Sequence record: NC_018854.1
Length of the DNA stretch: 64,000 bases
Source of the DNA: Escherichia phage ECBP1
Strand: one strand, 5' to 3'
This document shows, piece by piece, positions 1 to 7,454 of this stretch. Within the stretch, counting starts at the first letter, position 1. Each line of letters begins with the position of its first letter. Position numbers and translations under genes: made by a program. The notes beneath the pieces are model-generated. The model ran no database searches. It worked only from the letters and a program-made list of their open reading frames with translations, and was not told the origin of the DNA.

Positions 1-137
1 TTAGCAAAGATGCTACCGTAAGGAATAGTAGTGGTAATCCTAACCATCCGGACTATTACTCTAGTATAGCACGCATCATCACCAGAAAGCCCCATCTTAC
101 AGGATAACTTACACAATTAAGCTCTTAAGGATATTAA

Positions 138-464
138 ATGAAACTTACTAAGATAGGTTATGCTGATGGACCTATTTCCACTACCCATACAACCTTACAA
201 GACCTTGTACCTGGTAGACTCACTCCTATTATCCTAGTACCAGATGATCAGACTCTACACGAAGTTAAAGGATTAGCTTTACTACTAAATAAGGTGACTA
301 TTGTAGAAGTTCTTGAACCAGGAAAGGAATTACCGTGGTCCTCCTACATGTACTCCCCCTGGCATGTGAATACGGATAAGTACACTCTTACCTTTGGTAT
401 TACCAGTGAACTGCAAACTCCTCACTTGGTATATGCTTCCTCCTATTTAACTGCTTATAAGTAG
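138..464 (+). CDS. hypothetical protein (weak call; may be non-coding leader)
   Basis: 108-aa ORF from the track; unusual composition; no recognisable motif; repeat-rich non-coding DNA follows at 480-660. Confidence 0.25.
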   Translation: MKLTKIGYADGPISTTHTTLQDLVPGRLTPIILVPDDQTLHEVKGLALLLNKVTIVEVLEPGKELPWSSYMYSPWHVNTDKYTLTFGITSELQTPHLVYASSYLTAYK

Positions 465-665
465 GATAGCTATCATATTTTTGCATATGAAAAGTAGCAT
501 AGTTATGTATGGCTACAGTGGTGTGGCTGGGGCTACACCCTTACACTCAACCATCCCCCCCGGTATGTTGACGGTGTAGCCACTACCCTACCCCACCTTA
601 CACGTTACACATGCTCCGCATGTTATGGACATGTCGTCCTATCATCAACTATTGGAGCTATCATC

Positions 666-989
666 ATGACTACTCAAGCTACTGTACGTATGACCGCAGG
701 AACTTTACTTGGTACTGTTAACTCAGCTGCTACTACTGTTGCAGATACATTCGGTACAGCAACTAAAGCAGTAGGTATGCTTAATTCATATGTTAGTACG
801 ATGGCAGAGAAACAAGCCATTCGTACTAAATTAGAAATGCATACCTTTGTTAATAAACTGGCAGAGGAAACAGCTATGACTGAGACTCTGCGTAAGAAAA
901 GTATCGAGGAATTCTGCAAGGATTCAGAGAACGCTCGAATCTATAACGCAGAATATTCCAAAGTAATTGACATCCTGACTAAAGACTAA
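666..989 (+). CDS. hypothetical early protein
   Basis: 107-aa ORF; intrinsic terminator immediately downstream (998-1023). Confidence 0.5.
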   Translation: MTTQATVRMTAGTLLGTVNSAATTVADTFGTATKAVGMLNSYVSTMAEKQAIRTKLEMHTFVNKLAEETAMTETLRKKSIEEFCKDSENARIYNAEYSKVIDILTKD

Positions 990-997
990 GTCACATA

Positions 998-1023
998 GGA
1001 GACTCTTCGGAGTCTCCTTTTAT
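998..1023 (+). terminator. intrinsic terminator
   Basis: Stem ggagactc / gagtctcc with ttcg loop, followed by ttttat. Confidence 0.6.
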
Positions 1024-1076
1024 AAACATTAGATAGATAGTCAAAAGTAGATAACTATCTACTTTGGAGATAGATA

Positions 1077-1415
1077 ATGGCTAAGTACATTTGCATAAAA
1101 TCATTAACTAAAGATGTTCCTGTAGGAACAGAACTGGTAGGAAAATACCACTCACCAGGAAGATTCATTCTTACTGAAGATAGTAAATTAAAGTGTGTAT
1201 CAGGAACAGGACCACGTTGGTACAAAGATGACCAACTACCTCTTGCAGGTGCTTTATGGGTATGGCAATGCCAAGACCCTATTAAAGCTTTAGAACGCTA
1301 TGAGAAAGCTGTTCGTGCCCATGAAATGCTTGGTGCTCAAGACCCGGAAGATTGGCCTGGAATTGAGAAAGAGTATGAATCTGCTAAGGCAGAATTGCTT
1401 AATCATTTGTATTAA
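1077..1415 (+). CDS. hypothetical early protein
   Basis: 112-aa ORF; palindrome gtagat-aact-atctac just upstream; hairpin 1432-1450 downstream. Confidence 0.5.
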   Translation: MAKYICIKSLTKDVPVGTELVGKYHSPGRFILTEDSKLKCVSGTGPRWYKDDQLPLAGALWVWQCQDPIKALERYEKAVRAHEMLGAQDPEDWPGIEKEYESAKAELLNHLY

Positions 1416-1431
1416 AAACCAAGACCGCAGG

Positions 1432-1450
1432 CGTTGTCTGCAAGACAACG
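1432..1450 (+). promoter_or_regulatory. 8-bp stem / 3-nt loop hairpin (candidate N4-type vRNAP promoter hairpin or terminator-like element)
   Basis: cgttgtct-gca-agacaacg perfect inverted repeat; no T-tract after it. Confidence 0.3.
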
Positions 1451-1570
1451 ACGCTCCGCGTCTTATGGATGATGTAAATGCATCCACTAATCATTGAACT
1501 TTTATCCCTTTGTTTGGGTGTTCTCACCGACGAGTTCACCCGTAAATCACATAAATCTGGAGAGTACAAA

Positions 1571-1951
1571 ATGTCTATTCAAAAATTCACTTTCGGTCAA
1601 TCTAACACTGCTGCTTCTACTGCTAAAACTGATAAACCAAAAGCTCAGTTCTGGCTGAACATTGGTTATGTAGCTAACGAAGGCTCTGATGATGAGAAAT
1701 TCATCTCTCTGCCTACTGGTATTCCACTGGATACTCAGGAGCCACTGCCTACTAATAGCAGCAATGCTGACTTCCGTGCTATGCGTTGTGCACAGAACGA
1801 CTTGCTGGAACAGTTAATTGAGTATGCTCAGAACCTGGAACCAGGTGAAGAAGGTATCATAAACCTGCAAGTTCAACTTCGTCGTGTGAAAGCAGAGGCT
1901 GCTGACATCCCAGCAGACGAGAATAAATATGCTCGTAAACTGACTTTCTAA
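1571..1951 (+). CDS. hypothetical protein (alternative upstream start at 1478)
   Basis: ATG at 1571 preceded by GGAGA; terminator follows at 1961-1990. Confidence 0.5.
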
Positions 1952-1960
1952 TCAACCAAT

Positions 1961-1990
1961 AGACTCCCTTCGGGGAGTCTTTTATTTTTA
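1961..1990 (+). terminator. intrinsic terminator
   Basis: agactccc-ttcg-gggagtct followed by ttttattttt. Confidence 0.65.
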
Positions 1991-2091
1991 ACTAGACGAT
2001 AAGCTATTTCTACTTTTTGAGTATCTTTAGACGAAGGGTACTGAAACAGTAACCAGATAGATATAGATTTATATTAGAAGAGGAATTAACC

Positions 2092-2280
2092 ATGTTAGAC
2101 TTCATCGCTTTCTGTGTAATCTTCTACTTTCTGGGTTGGAAGTTACGTCATAAATGGTTGCTTATTGCTAAACTGCCATTCGTTACTATCGAGTGTCTCA
2201 TTGCTAGTATTAAACACAAGAAAGCAATGACTCAGTACTACAAGCAACAAGCAGAAGAGTTTGCAAAGAGGAACCAGTGA
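2092..2280 (+). CDS. small membrane protein
   Basis: 62-aa ORF with hydrophobic N-terminal segment (FIAFCVIFYFLGW). Confidence 0.4.
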   Translation: MLDFIAFCVIFYFLGWKLRHKWLLIAKLPFVTIECLIASIKHKKAMTQYYKQQAEEFAKRNQ

Positions 2281-2459
2281 TATTCACTAACATAGATGAT
2301 GCCATTGAAGAATGTATCTTTCGTAGGTATCACACTGGTGTACAGAAACGACACTATGGTGTTGTACAACTCAATGGCTATCAAATGGTTGTAAGAATTG
2401 TACGTAAGAATAAACCTTTTAACTTTATGTGGAGTACTAAATCATGCGTAAATCATTAA
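2277..2459 (+). CDS. hypothetical protein
   Basis: 60-aa ORF; start overlaps upstream stop. Confidence 0.35.
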   Translation: MIFTNIDDAIEECIFRRYHTGVQKRHYGVVQLNGYQMVVRIVRKNKPFNFMWSTKSCVNH

Positions 2460-2572
2460 TCATGGGAACCAGAGAAGACGTGCAAAAGATGAAAGAACGT
2501 CTGGTTGCTAAGAAACAGACGTCTGAACCAGTACGTAAGATTGTTACCTTCAACCATTCATGTATCAAGTAA
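2444..2572 (+). CDS. small ORF (42 aa), low confidence
   Basis: ATG-initiated basic ORF below the track threshold, ending just before terminator 2576-2610. Confidence 0.2.
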   Translation: MRKSLIMGTREDVQKMKERLVAKKQTSEPVRKIVTFNHSCIK

Positions 2573-2575
2573 CTA

Positions 2576-2610
2576 GGAGTCCTCCATTAGGAGGGCTTCT
2601 ATTTTTTATT
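2576..2610 (+). terminator. intrinsic terminator
   Basis: agtcctcc-atta-ggagggct followed by tctattttttatt. Confidence 0.6.
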
Positions 2611-2650
2611 CCTGAATAGTTAGATATGTATTTAAATAGGAGAAATAACC

Positions 2651-2959
2651 TTGAATGAAATTGTTTGTATACTTCCTCAATCAGCTAAGATAGCTGACAG
2701 GAATATCCGTATCCACTTACCCTTTCCATTAAGTAATCCATTCACTCGTAATGAAAGAACCACAGTAGAAGATGTAGAGGTAGCTTATGAAGCTTACCTC
2801 CGTAATCGTCTTATTAGTGGGGACAAACTAATTACAGCAGAGATGGAAAGGATTGCATCCTTTGTAACAGATAGTACAGGCAAGCCTGTTGGCTTAATTG
2901 GTACAGAGTCTGATGTTAACGTTATTCGTAAAATATTAATGGAGGCATTAAATGGCTAA
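2651..2959 (+). CDS. hypothetical protein, DUF4326-like paralog lacking the Cys/His motif (TTG start)
   Basis: SNPF...VEVAYEAYLRNRL resembles GNPF...VIAKYKVWLQEQI of ORF 4159-4539. Confidence 0.4.
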   Translation: MNEIVCILPQSAKIADRNIRIHLPFPLSNPFTRNERTTVEDVEVAYEAYLRNRLISGDKLITAEMERIASFVTDSTGKPVGLIGTESDVNVIRKILMEALNG

Positions 2960-3182
2960 ATATAAGGTAATACGCTTTGCAGATAATGAACGTGGTATTG
3001 GTGCAGAAGTAGAGAAAAAAACATTCTTTGGAACCAGTACATGGGTAAAAGTTAGTACACATGGACACAGTGAGTGCTTCGATAAATGGGTTAATAAAGA
3101 AACCGGTGTATCCGGTTATGCTGATACTACCCAATCAGAGATTAATGACTTCTATACTGCCAATCACATTACTAAGGAATAA
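2952..3182 (+). CDS. hypothetical protein
   Basis: 76-aa ORF; start overlaps upstream stop. Confidence 0.4.
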   Translation: MAKYKVIRFADNERGIGAEVEKKTFFGTSTWVKVSTHGHSECFDKWVNKETGVSGYADTTQSEINDFYTANHITKE

Positions 3183-3187
3183 ACAAA

Positions 3188-3409
3188 ATGTTGTTCAGCA
3201 CTAATTATGGTATTTGCCCAATTTGCAATAAAGGAAGAGGAGTTGCTAATCATAAGAAGTGTAGTCGTATATTACAGAAACAACGGAATCAGAAAGAATG
3301 GGATAAGGTGCTGAATAATCAGCATAAAGAAGAGAATCAACAGATGGCTGTTAAAGCATCTACTCAACGTATTCGCCGTATTAACTATATACAGGGGTAT
3401 CAGAAATGA
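3188..3409 (+). CDS. small basic zinc-ribbon-like protein
   Basis: CPIC...KKCS cysteine pairs; K/R/Q-rich. Confidence 0.4.
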   Translation: MLFSTNYGICPICNKGRGVANHKKCSRILQKQRNQKEWDKVLNNQHKEENQQMAVKASTQRIRRINYIQGYQK

Positions 3410-3663
3410 TTATTGCATATCCTACAGGCAAGACTGTGGAATATATGAAGCATACTATTCAAGTGCCTCACTGGGTTAAGTATATAGCATTACTACCTCG
3501 TCAATATAAGAGTGCTAATACCTCACTAATAGGATTCTCTAAAAAACCTAAGCTAACAGAAAACAATATCTGGGTATCCTCTGGGAGACAAGAAGAGATT
3601 GGTTTTTGTGATTTGAGTATTGTCAATAATAACGTTTACCTAACGCTGGAGAAAGTAGCATGA
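3406..3663 (+). CDS. hypothetical protein
   Basis: 85-aa ORF with ATGA-type overlap to neighbours. Confidence 0.4.
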   Translation: MIIAYPTGKTVEYMKHTIQVPHWVKYIALLPRQYKSANTSLIGFSKKPKLTENNIWVSSGRQEEIGFCDLSIVNNNVYLTLEKVA

Positions 3664-3851
3664 ATATTGAAAATTATGAAATCACTTTAGTAACAGCAGA
3701 CAGTAAAACTGTGATTAACAAACAATTAAATAATGACCCTGAGATGCTTAACTGGGTTGCAGAGCAATTTGCTGATGTTAACTCAGCACAGGTAACCCTA
3801 CGGAATATGTCAGGAAAAGTAGTAGCATTTACAGGCAAGGAGCCAGTATGA
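3660..3851 (+). CDS. hypothetical protein
   Basis: 63-aa ORF in a tightly packed operon. Confidence 0.35.
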   Translation: MNIENYEITLVTADSKTVINKQLNNDPEMLNWVAEQFADVNSAQVTLRNMSGKVVAFTGKEPV

Positions 3852-4162
3852 AAACTATTCTAGTAATCCATGATTCTACGTTTACTGATGTAGATAAGAT
3901 GATGCGTAATATTGATTATGTATCTCAGACAAGCCAAGCATTCAATGAAGAGTTTACTCTGTACTGCAATGCTGAATCTCCTCTGGTTCCTATCCTTAAG
4001 GAATCAGGTCTACCATTCTCTACAGAGAACTTCCCGGAAGAACCAGACTATGTAATCTCATTTATCTATGACTTACATGATGGTTCTGAAACTAGTGAAT
4101 TAGCTATGAACCAGTGGCGTAGTAAACGTCCTGTGTTTGCATTTCAGGTACTTAAACCATGA
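3848..4162 (+). CDS. hypothetical acidic protein
   Basis: 104-aa ORF with overlapping start and stop. Confidence 0.4.
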   Translation: MKTILVIHDSTFTDVDKMMRNIDYVSQTSQAFNEEFTLYCNAESPLVPILKESGLPFSTENFPEEPDYVISFIYDLHDGSETSELAMNQWRSKRPVFAFQVLKP

Positions 4163-4539
4163 AGATTATGTCATTAGGTGATGACACCAATGCTTTACTT
4201 GGTGTATCTGCACGTCCAATTATCATTGTTAATAAACATCACGGTAAATCCGGTGAGTATATTGGGCGTGGCTCACCATTAGGCAATCCATTCGTCATTG
4301 GTAAACATGGAACCAGAGAGCAAGTAATTGCTAAGTATAAAGTCTGGTTACAAGAACAGATTGATAAAGGTAATCCAGTTGTACTGGATGAACTTAATCG
4401 TCTGGGTAATAAAGCCATTGATGAGAAAGGATTAGCCTTACAGTGCTTCTGTTATCCAAAACCATGTCATGGTGAGGTTATTAAAGAGAAGCTAGTAAAG
4501 GCTATGTATAACTACTTTGTAGAAAATCTAAAAGGATAA
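4159..4539 (+). CDS. DUF4326-like protein
   Basis: Motif GRGSPLGNPF plus C-terminal CFCYPKPCHG, as I recall for DUF4326; not verified by HMM. Confidence 0.5.
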   Translation: MKIMSLGDDTNALLGVSARPIIIVNKHHGKSGEYIGRGSPLGNPFVIGKHGTREQVIAKYKVWLQEQIDKGNPVVLDELNRLGNKAIDEKGLALQCFCYPKPCHGEVIKEKLVKAMYNYFVENLKG

Positions 4540-4542
4540 TTT

Positions 4543-4893
4543 ATGAAAGAAATCTTAGTATTCACTACTAATGTACTTGGACAGCATAACAATGCTGCTG
4601 CCAAATTAGCTTATAAGAAACACGGTGCTCGCTGGGGCATGGCCTATGGTCATTATGGTAATAGCTTTGCCATTCCAGTAAAGGATGGTTATGGTAACCG
4701 TATTAAAGAAGGTGCTATCTATGGCTTCATTGAAGGCTTTATTGCATATGCATCTTCTAATCCACAATGGGATTTCAAAGTAATGGGAGATAACTTTCTG
4801 GACCCATACCTGTTCAATAATGTCACTGGCAATGTGCTATTGCCAGAAGCATGGCATAAATACTTAGGTAATGCTTACAACTATTGGAGTTAA
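4543..4893 (+). CDS. hypothetical protein, possible Rossmann-like fold
   Basis: ILVFTTNVLGQHNNAAAKLAYKKHGARWG...FAIPVKD strand-loop-helix pattern; 3 nt after the DUF4326-like gene. Confidence 0.45.
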   Translation: MKEILVFTTNVLGQHNNAAAKLAYKKHGARWGMAYGHYGNSFAIPVKDGYGNRIKEGAIYGFIEGFIAYASSNPQWDFKVMGDNFLDPYLFNNVTGNVLLPEAWHKYLGNAYNYWS

Positions 4894-5156
4894 TAATGAC
4901 TTATGAAGAACTATGGTCTGCTCAAGTCAGAGCCAGAGCACTCACACGACACGATATCTATTGTGCATTACAGAACGAATTAAAGAGTCGTACTAAGCTG
5001 GGTCACATATCCGGCTTAGTTAAAATACCTATGACTAGCCTAGTCTGGCCTTATCAGAAGAAAAGTAATGAGTTTAATGGTAATGGTCTGCATGTACGCA
5101 TCGACTACATCGGTAATGAAAACAGTATTCGTATTACCTTTTGGACTAAGCGTTAG
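4884..5156 (+). CDS. hypothetical protein
   Basis: 90-aa ORF. Confidence 0.4.
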   Translation: MELIMTYEELWSAQVRARALTRHDIYCALQNELKSRTKLGHISGLVKIPMTSLVWPYQKKSNEFNGNGLHVRIDYIGNENSIRITFWTKR

Positions 5157-5209
5157 TTAATGGCTGCTCCGCAGCTTTTGGTTATTAATCACATTTAGGA
5201 GAATAAGCG

Positions 5210-6028
5210 ATGTACTCATCCATTGAACATCAGAAGCAACTCGAAAAACTATTCAATAAAAATCAGCTCTTGCCTCGCATGAGGAAGGAATTCGAGGACT
5301 CCGAAGAAATTGACTTTAAGGCATTCGCTGCCTATTTAGAAATTGATTATAAGCTGCTCATTGATGCAATGGTGCAGATTGCCCTACATAAACGTGCTGA
5401 CATCCAAACTATGATTGGTTCTCTAATGAGTCACTCAGATGATGCTCAGTACATCGCTGACTGTCTGTATAAGATGGCAGAGAATGACTGCTTCAACTAT
5501 GACCCTACCATCGACAAGTTCGGTGTTATCTATGAGATTAGTGAAGATGTACAGATGGAACTGGAAGCATTCCAGTACCCATTACCTATCGTAAGTGCTC
5601 CTAAGCCTGTTAAGTGTAACCGTGATACTGGTTACTACGAAAGCAGAGGTAGCATCATACTTAAGAAGAATCATCATGAGATGGATGTCTGTCTTGATCA
5701 CATCAACCGCATGAACAATCAACGTCTCTGCATTAACTGGGACGTTGCTAACTACGTAAAAGACTCCCGTCCTAACATGGATAAACCCAAAGAGGGTGAA
5801 ACCCGTCAGGACTATGAGAAGCGTGTTAAAGCCTTTGAGAAGTACAGCCGTACAGCTAAGGAAGTAATGGAGTTAGTGACCAAAGAAGGTAATAACTTCT
5901 CACTGGCTCACAAATATGACAAACGTGGGCGTACATATGCCTGTGGCTACCACATCAACTATCAGGGAACCAGTTACAACAAAGCTGTACTGGAGTTCGC
6001 TGATAAGGAGTTAGTAAATGAAGACTAA
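5210..6028 (+). CDS. N4-type RNA polymerase II small subunit (N-terminal part of a split T7-like RNAP)
   Basis: 272 aa directly upstream of the RNAP catalytic-motif subunit; size and synteny match N4 gp15/gp16 as recalled. Confidence 0.6.
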   Translation: MYSSIEHQKQLEKLFNKNQLLPRMRKEFEDSEEIDFKAFAAYLEIDYKLLIDAMVQIALHKRADIQTMIGSLMSHSDDAQYIADCLYKMAENDCFNYDPTIDKFGVIYEISEDVQMELEAFQYPLPIVSAPKPVKCNRDTGYYESRGSIILKKNHHEMDVCLDHINRMNNQRLCINWDVANYVKDSRPNMDKPKEGETRQDYEKRVKAFEKYSRTAKEVMELVTKEGNNFSLAHKYDKRGRTYACGYHINYQGTSYNKAVLEFADKELVNED

Positions 6029-6179
6029 CATTGGCTCATATGAGCTATGGGTTAATGAAGAATGCGTTTACTCCGGTACATATGTGAAGTGCTTATACTT
6101 TGAAAAGCTTTACAAGCTTCAAAACCCTGAGAGTAAAACCATTATTTATAAACTATCTGCCGACGTAGTAACTGGCTAA
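6018..6179 (+). CDS. small ORF (53 aa) between the RNAP II subunit genes
   Basis: ATG overlaps the upstream stop (aATGAag); fills an otherwise empty 209-nt gap; below track threshold. Confidence 0.3.
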   Translation: MKTNIGSYELWVNEECVYSGTYVKCLYFEKLYKLQNPESKTIIYKLSADVVTG

Positions 6180-6236
6180 TCCATCCAATAAGCAGGCTCT
6201 CCATAGTGGGGAGCCAAGAAGCAAAAGGAACATAAA

Positions 6237-7454
6237 ATGCAACTGTTAACCGCTAAACAATACCTGAAAGTAGATATCGCCAATAACTATGGTCTGGATA
6301 AAAAGACATGGGATGAGCGTATTGCCTGGTTCGATGAGAACGAAGCTAACCTGCTTAATCTGGTAGATGAAGCTGAAGATTCTGCACTGTTCTATGCTGG
6401 TGTAAATGCATGGAAAGATATGAAAGCAGGTAAGCCTATTGGTTATGCCGTAGCTCTGGATGCTACATCATCTGGCTTGCAATTACTGGCTTGTCTGACG
6501 GGTGACCGCTCTGCTGCTGAACTGTGTAACGTAGTTAATTACATGGGTGAGAATGGTAAGCCATTACGTCGTGATGCTTATACAGTCATCTATCACAAGA
6601 TGTTGGACATCCTTGGTGAAGCATCTCGTATTAAACGTAGTGACACTAAGCAGGCAGTTATGACTGCGTTCTACGGCTCAGAAGCCAAGCCTAAAGAAGT
6701 ATTCGGTGAAGGTATTCGTCTCAAGACTTTTGAGAATGTAATGGAAACTGTTGCTAGTGGTCCTTGGGCATTGAACAAGTTCTTACTGCAATGTGGTAAT
6801 CCAGATGCCAACCGTTACATATGGATACTTCCTGACAACTTCCACGCTGTCATTAAGGTCATGGTTCCAGAAGTACAGACTGTTAACTTCTTAGGCAAAC
6901 CGTTCGACATTACTCGTATGGTTCAGGGTACTGAAGAGAAGACTCGTATGCTCTCTGCTAACATCACCCACTCTATTGATGGGATGGTGGTACGTGAGAT
7001 GCTGCGTCGTTGTAACTTCGACCGTGACTTAGTGGAAGCTGTGCGAGAACTCTGCGATGAAGGTCCATCAGAATATGGGGAGATTGCAGGTAATCTGGAG
7101 AAGGTACAAGAGCTATGGAGCCATTATGAGAAGTCTGGCTTCTTATCTTTATCCATCCTGGACTATCTTGACCCATGTACTATTGCTTATGTAGACCGTC
7201 AGGTAGTAGCAGATATGATTGACACTCTGCCTAAGAAACCATTCCCTGTAATGACTGTACATGACTGCTTCCGTTGCCATCCTAACTACGGTAATGACCT
7301 GCGTCGTCAGTACAATCAGATCCTGTCTGATATTGCTAAGAGTGACCTACTGGGCTTCATCCTGTCTCAGGTACTGGGGCAAGAGTTCTCTGCTGGTAAG
7401 CTGGATGACAGCCTCTGGCAGGACATTCTTGAAACAGACTATGCGTTGAGTTAA
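6237..7454 (+). CDS. N4-type RNA polymerase II large subunit (T7-like single-subunit RNAP catalytic domain)
   Basis: Motif B-like KQAVMTAFYGS and motif C-like VHDCF. Confidence 0.75.
   Translation: MQLLTAKQYLKVDIANNYGLDKKTWDERIAWFDENEANLLNLVDEAEDSALFYAGVNAWKDMKAGKPIGYAVALDATSSGLQLLACLTGDRSAAELCNVVNYMGENGKPLRRDAYTVIYHKMLDILGEASRIKRSDTKQAVMTAFYGSEAKPKEVFGEGIRLKTFENVMETVASGPWALNKFLLQCGNPDANRYIWILPDNFHAVIKVMVPEVQTVNFLGKPFDITRMVQGTEEKTRMLSANITHSIDGMVVREMLRRCNFDRDLVEAVRELCDEGPSEYGEIAGNLEKVQELWSHYEKSGFLSLSILDYLDPCTIAYVDRQVVADMIDTLPKKPFPVMTVHDCFRCHPNYGNDLRRQYNQILSDIAKSDLLGFILSQVLGQEFSAGKLDDSLWQDILETDYALS

Follow-up and report, generated by a model that had tools for sequence, protein, structure and literature searches.

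The virion polymerases of N4-type phages are the textbook case of enzymes whose promoter is a DNA hairpin, which supercoiling extrudes. In an N4-type infection, only four polymerase molecules are injected. The early promoters P1, P2 and P3 of N4 are DNA-hairpin promoters of this virion RNA polymerase, vRNAP (Glucksmann 1992; Davydova 2007; Gleghorn 2008; reviewed in PMC4496689), and extrusion of the hairpin is a step controlled by gyrase and SSB (PMC4496689). Mapped vRNAP promoters have stems of 5–7 bp and a 3-nt loop. The hairpin on the template strand has a GC-rich heptamer centred at −11 and a G:C loop-closing pair, and its loop follows 5'-G-(A/G)-A-3', the 5' G and the 3' A forming a sheared pair (PMC4496689). 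On the template strand the enzyme needs A or G at −11, G at −10, G at −8 and C at +1 (Lenneman and Rothman-Denes 2015; PMC4496689), and where a promoter stem has 7 bp it opens the two outermost pairs (PMC4496689). According to reviews, N4 P2 combines a GCGGAGC mini-hairpin with a 7-bp stem. Loops of the G-N-A form are also known from studies of small DNA hairpins. Among the 64 triloops, G-N-A alone gives a very stable DNA mini-hairpin, while the RNA counterparts are much weaker, and the mini-hairpins d(GCGNAGC) described by Hirao and Yoshizawa have a sheared G·A pair and a closing C:G pair (PMC13037366). Such mini-hairpins occur in single-strand initiation signals and in the origin of phage G4 (PMC13037366). 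In Pseudomonas phage LUZ7, the middle promoters take the form of GC-rich hairpins whose stem has 6 bp or more and whose loop has 3–4 nt; transcription starts at a G about 15 bp further downstream (PMC9163698), whereas RNAPII promoters of N4-type coliphages are AT-rich sequences from −7 to +2, not hairpins.

The DNA analysed here (the window) is a stretch of 64,000 nt from Escherichia phage ECBP1 (NC_018854.1). Its first 3 kb are 90–99% identical to G7C/Bp4-like N4-type coliphages (genus Gamaleyavirus), and by this homology the window is the early end of such a phage. The homologs of gp1, gp2 (in N4 an ssDNA-binding cofactor of RNAPII) and the RNAPII subunits are all encoded on the + strand (Table 1). 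The ORF upstream of gp2 is absent from N4 and Bp4. A preliminary description of this DNA had pointed to a hairpin in the gap downstream of this ORF as a candidate vRNAP promoter. The hairpin is present as described, with a perfect 8-bp stem and a 3-nt loop, and it is indeed intergenic, lying between the TAA of ORF 1077–1415 and the start codon of the gp2 homolog (1478 or 1571). The remark that it does not resemble a sense-strand terminator was also borne out: ACGCTCCGCG comes next, with no T-tract, and a terminator scan of the + strand reports nothing here. A coding role for the region was considered and rejected. The overlapping ORFs 1300–1497 (+), 1290–1487 (−) and 1399–1569 (−) are out of frame or antisense, the annotations of relatives do not contain them, and substitutions track pairing.

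Table 1. Features at the early end of the window; promoter assignments and transcription starts are predicted.
Feature	Position	Strand	Description
P1-type vRNAP promoter hairpin	610–622	+	CATGC-TCC-GCATG; predicted start 627; before gp1 homolog; N4 (L001) 90–102
gp1 homolog	666–989	+	N4 homology
Second palindrome	1044–1065		9-bp stem AAAGTAGAT-aact-ATCTACTTT, 4-nt loop, AT-rich stem
ORF 1077–1415	1077–1415	+	112 aa, PHROG 24403; accessory ORF upstream of the element; TAA at 1413–1415
Conserved junction motif	1415–1422	+	AAAACCAA; in element-free relatives its two terminal A's lengthen the promoter stem to 7 bp
Long imperfect hairpin, alternative fold	1419–1468	+	5' part of the element, GACCGCAGG, pairs with promoter CGCTCCGCGTC; 8-bp hairpin at the tip
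27-nt presence/absence element	1423–1449	+	GACCGCAGGCGTTGTCTGCAAGACAAC; between AAAACCAA and the promoter hairpin
8-bp hairpin	1432–1450	+	stem CGTTGTCT/AGACAACG, loop GCA; tip of the 27-nt element
P2-type vRNAP promoter hairpin	1450–1462	+ (rightward)	GACGC-TCC-GCGTC; template (− strand) GACGC-GGA-GCGTC
Predicted transcription start	1467	+	leading G of GGATG; distance to loop centre (1456) 11 nt; N4 spacing and +1 rule
gp2 homolog	1571–1951	+	alternative upstream ATG at 1478, matching the N4 annotation; gene served by P2
P3-type vRNAP promoter hairpin	5163–5175	+	GCTGC-TCC-GCAGC; predicted start 5180; before RNAPII small-subunit homolog; N4 (L001) 4548–4560
RNAPII small-subunit homolog	5210–6028	+	
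RNAPII subunit homolog, second	6237–7454	+	

The published features of a vRNAP promoter are found in the hairpin that adjoins the 8-bp hairpin on its right and overlaps it at G1450 only. This hairpin is followed by TTAT and then by GGATG. The + strand bases C1456, C1457, C1459 and G1467 give G, G, G and C on the template, that is −11G, −10G, −8G and +1C, and the 5-bp stem, the 3-nt loop, the template GGA loop, the G:C closing pair and the GC-rich heptamer all agree with the rules given above. The template core, GCGGAGC, is that of N4 P2. On the + strand, the motif GCTCCGCNNNTTNTGGA is matched at 613, at 1453 and, with one mismatch, at 5166, upstream of the gp1, gp2 and RNAPII homologs, against an average of 0.85 matches in shuffled sequences. 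N4 carries it at 93, 562 and 4551, sites orthologous to the three of the window, and a 4-nt spacer followed by GG is common to the three sites of the window and those of N4. The N4 hairpin at 559–571 (L001; GAAGC-TCC-GCTTC, then TTTT and GGATG) aligns with window 1450–1462, the homology between N4 and the window beginning at about 1442 and extending into gp2. In the record of phage KP8, promoters of the same motif are annotated as 'early promoter', including a site just upstream of the gp2 homolog. In the comparison with the N4 promoter hairpins that the preliminary description had proposed, counterparts of P1–P3 were found at 610–622, 1450–1462 and 5163–5175, and not at the 8-bp hairpin. With the N4 promoters the hairpin at 1450–1462 shares the template core, the spacer, the GG start and the position before gp2, and on these features it is assigned as a P2-type vRNAP promoter, orthologous to N4 P2 and in no way unusual, from which transcription is predicted to start at 1467.

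That the 8-bp hairpin could itself serve vRNAP as a promoter, rightward or leftward, is scarcely credible beside this site. In its favour, it is a 3-nt-loop hairpin in the early region with no T-tract, the central base of its loop is a purine on the − strand, and the + strand loop has the G..A form. When it is read rightward (template, − strand), however, the loop is TGC, the closing pair is T:A, and T, C and G stand at −10, −8 and +1, so that only one of six determinants (the purine at −11) is present and −10G, −8G, +1C, a G:C closing pair and a loop of the required form are all lacking. When it is read leftward (template, + strand), two of the six (−10 G and −12 A) are present, but there is C at −11, C at −8, G at +1 and a T:A closing pair in place of the bases needed, and the loop GCA has a central pyrimidine. 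The heptamer TCTGCAA is 3/7 GC, and the 8-bp stem exceeds the 5–7 bp of mapped promoters. The − strand hairpin is mismatched in two of the three sequence types described below (B and C). The hairpin is also not conserved, being absent from most relatives, including N4, Bp4 and KP8, and these relatives still keep the adjoining promoter. Its likeness to N4 P1–P3 is one of general shape only, a short stem with a 3-nt loop; unlike them, it has an 8-bp stem, T:A closing, no −8G, no +1C and a G-N-A loop on the non-template strand, and where they are conserved sites, it is an insert that may be present or absent. The preliminary description was right about the type of element and the gap in which it lies and mistaken about the hairpin, and its expectation of a transcript start about 10 nt from the loop fits no better, the predicted start lying 26 nt from the loop of the 8-bp hairpin.

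The same description mentioned another palindrome upstream of ORF 1077–1415. The sequence gtagat-aact-atctac is real, at 1047–1062 and not at 1043–1058, the coordinates having been about 4 nt off, and it forms the inner part of a longer stem (Table 1). Its sequence does not vary among Gamaleyaviruses. In N4 the right arm AACTATC is present too, but the left arm that it pairs with is another one and the hairpin is shifted, and hence this palindrome offers no covariation. Given its AT-rich stem and 4-nt loop, it lacks promoter features.

Taken by itself, the 8-bp hairpin is not beyond chance. Perfect hairpins with a stem of at least 8 bp and a 3-nt loop number 3 in the 64-kb window against 1.16 ± 1.1 in 200 dinucleotide shuffles, 13.5% of which reach 3. 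Its predicted stability is −8.5 kcal/mol as DNA on the + strand, −7.4 on the − strand and −9.7 as RNA. No further copies were found elsewhere in the window with up to 3 mismatches allowed, and an Rfam scan of 1–7000 at permissive E-values gave three chance-level matches only, none of them at the hairpin site. Its significance comes solely from comparison with relatives. The junction between ORF and promoter was aligned in 15 relatives. In most of them TAAAAACCAA directly abuts GACGC-TCC-GCGTC, with the conserved AAAACCAA immediately before GACGC, making a promoter stem of 6–7 bp (AAGACGC/GCGTCTT). Phages nithesis, VTCCBPA_322, PhAPEC7, Bp4, pSb-1, PE007 and SP5M and Klebsiella phages KP8 and VLCpiP4b are of this kind, and the window sequence minus 1423–1449 reads AAAACCAAGACGC. 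In the window and in phage 24-32N, 27 extra bases leave a promoter stem of 5 bp, which still makes a valid promoter, since vRNAP itself reduces a 7-bp stem to 5 bp in the way described above. A repeated GAC leaves a 3-nt ambiguity in the boundary of the extra bases. On this alignment the 8-bp hairpin is recognised as the tip of an optional 27-nt element inserted in the upstream arm of the P2 promoter, and the reading of the locus as promoter plus inserted element is held with high confidence. In the literature searched on vRNAP promoters no description of the insert was found, and it has no Rfam match.

Phage records, viral contigs and metagenomes were searched for the element by BLAST and with patterns. 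It was found in 3/82 related phage records, in three viral contigs, one of which (IMG/VR) has the hairpin at the coordinates of the window and is apparently the window's source, and in one metagenome contig. Only three sequence types occur in the collections searched: type A in the window and 24-32N, type B in KKP 3715 and L017/L021, and type C in Klebsiella phage VLCpiP4a, L016/L026 and L067. Exact and degenerate pattern scans of the viral contigs gave nothing beyond these three, and the single metagenome scan gave one genuine copy, identical to type C, together with 18 GC-rich chance matches and no further variants. The element spans phage genera of Escherichia and Klebsiella. Invariably it is joined to this one promoter hairpin, but the genes around it make up four different contexts. 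Two of these have gp2 downstream and two a small ORF unrelated to it; upstream, three have a member of the ORF1077 family, and KKP 3715 has an unrelated gene. Identical copies of type B stand between different flanks, which implies that the element travels with the promoter by recombination. Phage G7C has the right arm AAGACAAC only, its homology to the window starting exactly in the hairpin loop. In a survey of 66 distinct promoter-like hairpins at about 50 loci, an abutting upstream hairpin was seen only here and in one unrelated case (L020).

The stem of the element is CGTTGTCT/AGACAACG in type A, CGTTGCCT/AGGTAACG in type B and CGATGCCC/GGGTATCG in type C. Among its eight pairs, four are invariant, three are changed on both sides and one alternates between G:C and G:T, so that each pair is kept in each type; types A and C differ at 7/19 hairpin positions with all pairs retained. 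In a covariation test 8/500 shuffles do as well, and a shifted register cuts pairing to 20–54%. The 8-bp stem shows covariation by this test, in a sample of three sequence types only. As a negative control, 0/15 distinct chance matches to the flank pattern form the stem. The G·T wobble pairs are formed on the + strand only; the − strand of types B and C has an A·C mismatch and folds poorly. The loops are GCA in type A, GTA in type B and GAA in type C: the G and the A never change, and each type has its own middle base. In this the loop resembles G-N-A DNA mini-hairpins, and the site is one known to become single-stranded. Unlike those mini-hairpins, types A and B close the loop by T:A, and only type C has C:G, with an exact C-GAA-G core. 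The G-N-A feature, which stabilises the promoter's own GGA loop, is common to that loop and the loop of the element, on opposite strands. Within the three types available, the stem of the + strand is evolutionarily maintained by these paired substitutions, with the loop G-N-A throughout. Three independent types represent very few events, and the wobble position common to types B and C may reflect a single one. Palindromes can also acquire 'compensatory' changes by template-switch mutation, without selection.

The 5' part of the element is also complementary to the promoter itself. In the long imperfect hairpin of Table 1 AAGAC pairs with GTCTT as well, and the 5' part of the element, GACCG(C/A)AGG, is nearly invariant, its sole variable base being the predicted bulge. 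The long hairpin is predicted as RNA in all three types, at −17.8 to −23.4 kcal/mol, and with DNA parameters it is the minimum-energy fold of the window copy on both strands. The probability of the promoter hairpin, calculated with DNA parameters, is 0.92–1.00 in element-free relatives and N4, but 0.00–0.02 on both strands of the window copy and 0.4–0.8 in types B and C. The nearest-neighbour model treats free single strands, with no supercoiling, SSB or polymerase, and has no term for G-N-A mini-hairpins; because of these limits the predicted masking of the promoter may be over- or understated. The folding calculations show that a competing structure exists, not which of the conformations prevails inside the cell. 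Two folds that exclude each other, with a functional hairpin hidden in one, are also the property of attenuator-type switches of alternative structure, and the arms of the element are related by imperfect inverted duplication as in quasi-palindromes. What differs from those switches is that a promoter hairpin in DNA, and not a terminator in RNA, would be hidden here. The literature searched contained no account of such a switch at vRNAP promoters. The possibility that the 5' part of the element is a decayed promoter copy was considered and not established, as complementarity to the promoter explains the similarity equally well.

The best explanation of these observations, held tentatively and at a little under an even chance, is that the 27-nt optional element is a cis-acting DNA structural modifier of a P2-type vRNAP promoter. 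The DNA-level mechanism that would go with it is possible, at a somewhat lower level of confidence. The element would act in cis on the DNA, where supercoiling extrudes the promoter hairpin, and would convert a simple 7-bp inverted repeat into an imperfect one of about 50 nt with two competing conformations. In one of them, the long hairpin would hide the promoter sequence; in the other, the 8-bp hairpin and the 5-bp promoter hairpin would stand side by side. The G-N-A cap may favour the long or the 8-bp hairpin on the non-template strand, and the promoter's GGA cap may favour the promoter hairpin on the template strand. The promoter arm could be hidden in the longer cruciform, or the non-template strand could be held in a stable capped hairpin. 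By either route P2 would be tuned or gated, with attenuation or a need for more supercoiling or SSB as the likelier direction. Since no more than four polymerases are injected and extra promoter copies are present in these phages, the relative strength of a promoter plausibly matters. A stronger form, in which the insert is a natural DNA-level switch, an 'anti-promoter' arm capped by G-N-A on the non-template strand, with two cruciforms setting the availability of the promoter, is rather unlikely. By analogy with the G-N-A hairpins of single-strand initiation sites, an SSB-resistant hairpin of the + strand might serve as a priming or assembly signal, which is less likely. The element is rare and dispensable, which speaks against a role at the DNA level, and its strand polarity and its site just past a stop codon fit a role in RNA equally well.

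Such a role in RNA would make the element the end of the message of the ORF1077 family, produced by read-through from P1 and closed by a stem-loop or long hairpin acting as a 3' stabiliser, a pause or insulator site, or a weak terminator for phage polymerases. The element lies 8 nt past the stop codon of ORF 1077–1415, and in being a stem-loop a few bases behind a stop it is like the intrinsic terminators and 3' stem-loops of phage early messages; G·U wobble is tolerated in the sense strand only, the RNA folds mentioned above are strong, and a gene of the ORF1077 family lies upstream in three of the four contexts. Unlike intrinsic terminators, however, it has no sense-strand U-tract, which the canonical terminators of the region (998–1025, 1961–1990 and 2574–2611) all have; its only T-run is antisense and not found in every type. 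The element is also fused to the promoter at a fixed position everywhere, including KKP 3715 with its unrelated upstream gene, its loop obeys the G-N-A rule, known from DNA mini-hairpins whose RNA forms are weak, and the same upstream genes manage without it in most relatives. A function in the sense RNA is accordingly judged unlikely. To about the same degree, it is unlikely that the element is a functionless by-product of template switching or recombination at the promoter inverted repeat, a neutral quasi-palindromic insertion spread by recombination between promoter copies, with pairing kept by mutational palindrome correction. Its rare and patchy occurrence would suit such an origin, as would the left arm, which copies the right arm plus promoter imperfectly and in inverted form, the break of the G7C homology exactly in the loop, and the spread of type B between different flanks. 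What a neutral insertion explains poorly is that types A and C keep every pair over so many changed positions while the 5' part is nearly invariant, that the loop keeps its G and A with a different middle base in each of the three types, and that the element persists across the Escherichia and Klebsiella phage genera.

Two further explanations have a very small probability each. The hairpin might be the site of another factor, either a hairpin-type middle promoter of RNAPII as in LUZ7, with which it shares the stem of at least 6 bp, the 3–4-nt loop and the occurrence in an N4-like phage (PMC9163698), or a palindromic operator of a dimeric protein, for which a perfect 8-3-8 palindrome is also suitably shaped. 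LUZ7 belongs to a different genus, however, and RNAPII promoters in N4-type coliphages are AT-rich motifs; no gene was noted as co-occurring with the element, and an operator leaves the + strand wobble and the complementarity to the promoter unexplained. The other is a leftward terminator, the long hairpin on the − strand standing directly before TTTTT. For RNA of the − strand the window gives a fold of −21.9 kcal/mol with UUUUUAAU next to it, KKP 3715 has U6, and element-free promoters also show a hairpin and then GGUUUUU. Type C has no U-run, though, the − strand folds of types B and C, with their A·C mismatches, are barely above shuffles (z = −1.3), and there are no leftward genes nearby.

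The promoter at 1450–1462 is itself a routine ortholog of a well-studied element, and what appears to be new, in the literature searched, is a vRNAP hairpin promoter with a maintained accessory hairpin of putative function. Placing the promoter correctly fixes the annotation of this region. With the insert, the locus is a natural variant of a vRNAP promoter, in which a maintained second hairpin would compete with the promoter inverted repeat or extend it. Relatives with and without the 27 nt, in near-identical contexts, constitute a ready-made experiment on how neighbouring DNA structure affects extrusion, SSB and the recruitment of vRNAP. If the insert is neutral, promoter hairpins would still be marked as hot spots of recombination and insertion that shuffle small cassettes of early genes. 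If it is a DNA switch, the phage would set by it the supercoiling or SSB threshold of one early promoter and the share of the four injected polymerases that this promoter receives.

The early region of the window (1-6500) contains five sigma-70-like promoter matches, as against 19.8 ± 5.6 in shuffled sequences. This depletion agrees with early genes that are unread by the host polymerase.

The early transcripts predicted from P1 and P2, two of the vRNAP-type hairpin promoters, each carry a 5'-terminal stem-loop, and both stem-loops are kept in N4. They may serve for 5'-end protection or form part of the initiation region. A C-rich tract, ccctaccccaccttacac, lies immediately 5' of P1, and such a tract adjoins the upstream side of all P1-type promoters (also those in L001, L007, L012, L021, L024-L031, L035, L036, L039 and L041), those of distant N4-like phages included; P2 and the third promoter, P3, are without it. 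Compared with the true left end, the contig start appears to be permuted, because the first ~520 bases, which include ORF 138-464 (PHROG 16338), precede the point at which Bp4-type genome starts align (523) and match elsewhere in the record in several relatives.

On leftward reading of the P2 region (minus strand), GGTTTTT comes directly after the promoter hairpin (or after the long hairpin of which the 27-nt insert abutting P2 is a part), an intrinsic-terminator-like layout. The same layout is present in relatives free of the insert, and the Klebsiella type is without the T-run on this reading. The second palindrome, upstream of ORF 1077, is surrounded by direct and inverted TAGATAG/CTATCTA repeats, a zone located between the gp1 terminator and this ORF. 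N4 has the same right arm of the palindrome, but there it is paired with a different left arm.

Coordinates of features in the window and in relatives
Feature	Locus	Position
C-rich tract 5' of P1	window	~583-604
P1 stem-loop, GGAC-atgtc-GTCC	window	627-639
	N4 (L001)	103-115
P2 stem-loop, GGATG-atgtaaatg-CATCC	window	1467-1485
	N4 (L001)	576-593
TAGATAG/CTATCTA repeats	window	1031-1076
Terminator-like layout (minus strand)	window	1410-1468
Segment compared with G7C	window	1442-1462
	G7C (L012)	~1201-1221
Extra promoter-hairpin copies around small ORFs	L005	544-816
	L006	544-816
	L008	433-717
	L010	739-1084
	L011	736-1012
Hairpin GACGAAC-TTC-GTTCGTC	L020	~1955-1990

From 1442 onward the window matches G7C perfectly, and this match begins within the loop of the 8-bp flagged hairpin at the tip of the insert, only the right arm, AAGACAAC, being retained in G7C. 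The palindrome centre is a breakpoint of recombination or deletion. In one relative (L020), a 7-bp hairpin with a 3-nt loop, unrelated to the insert, adjoins a P1-like promoter hairpin; its loop polarity is of the promoter type, and it could represent a promoter copy, either tandem or decayed. In other relatives, extra promoter-hairpin copies flank small ORFs on both sides, with TAAAA(A)CCAA as the junction motif. It looks as if recombination at the promoter hairpins shuffles promoter-plus-ORF cassettes.
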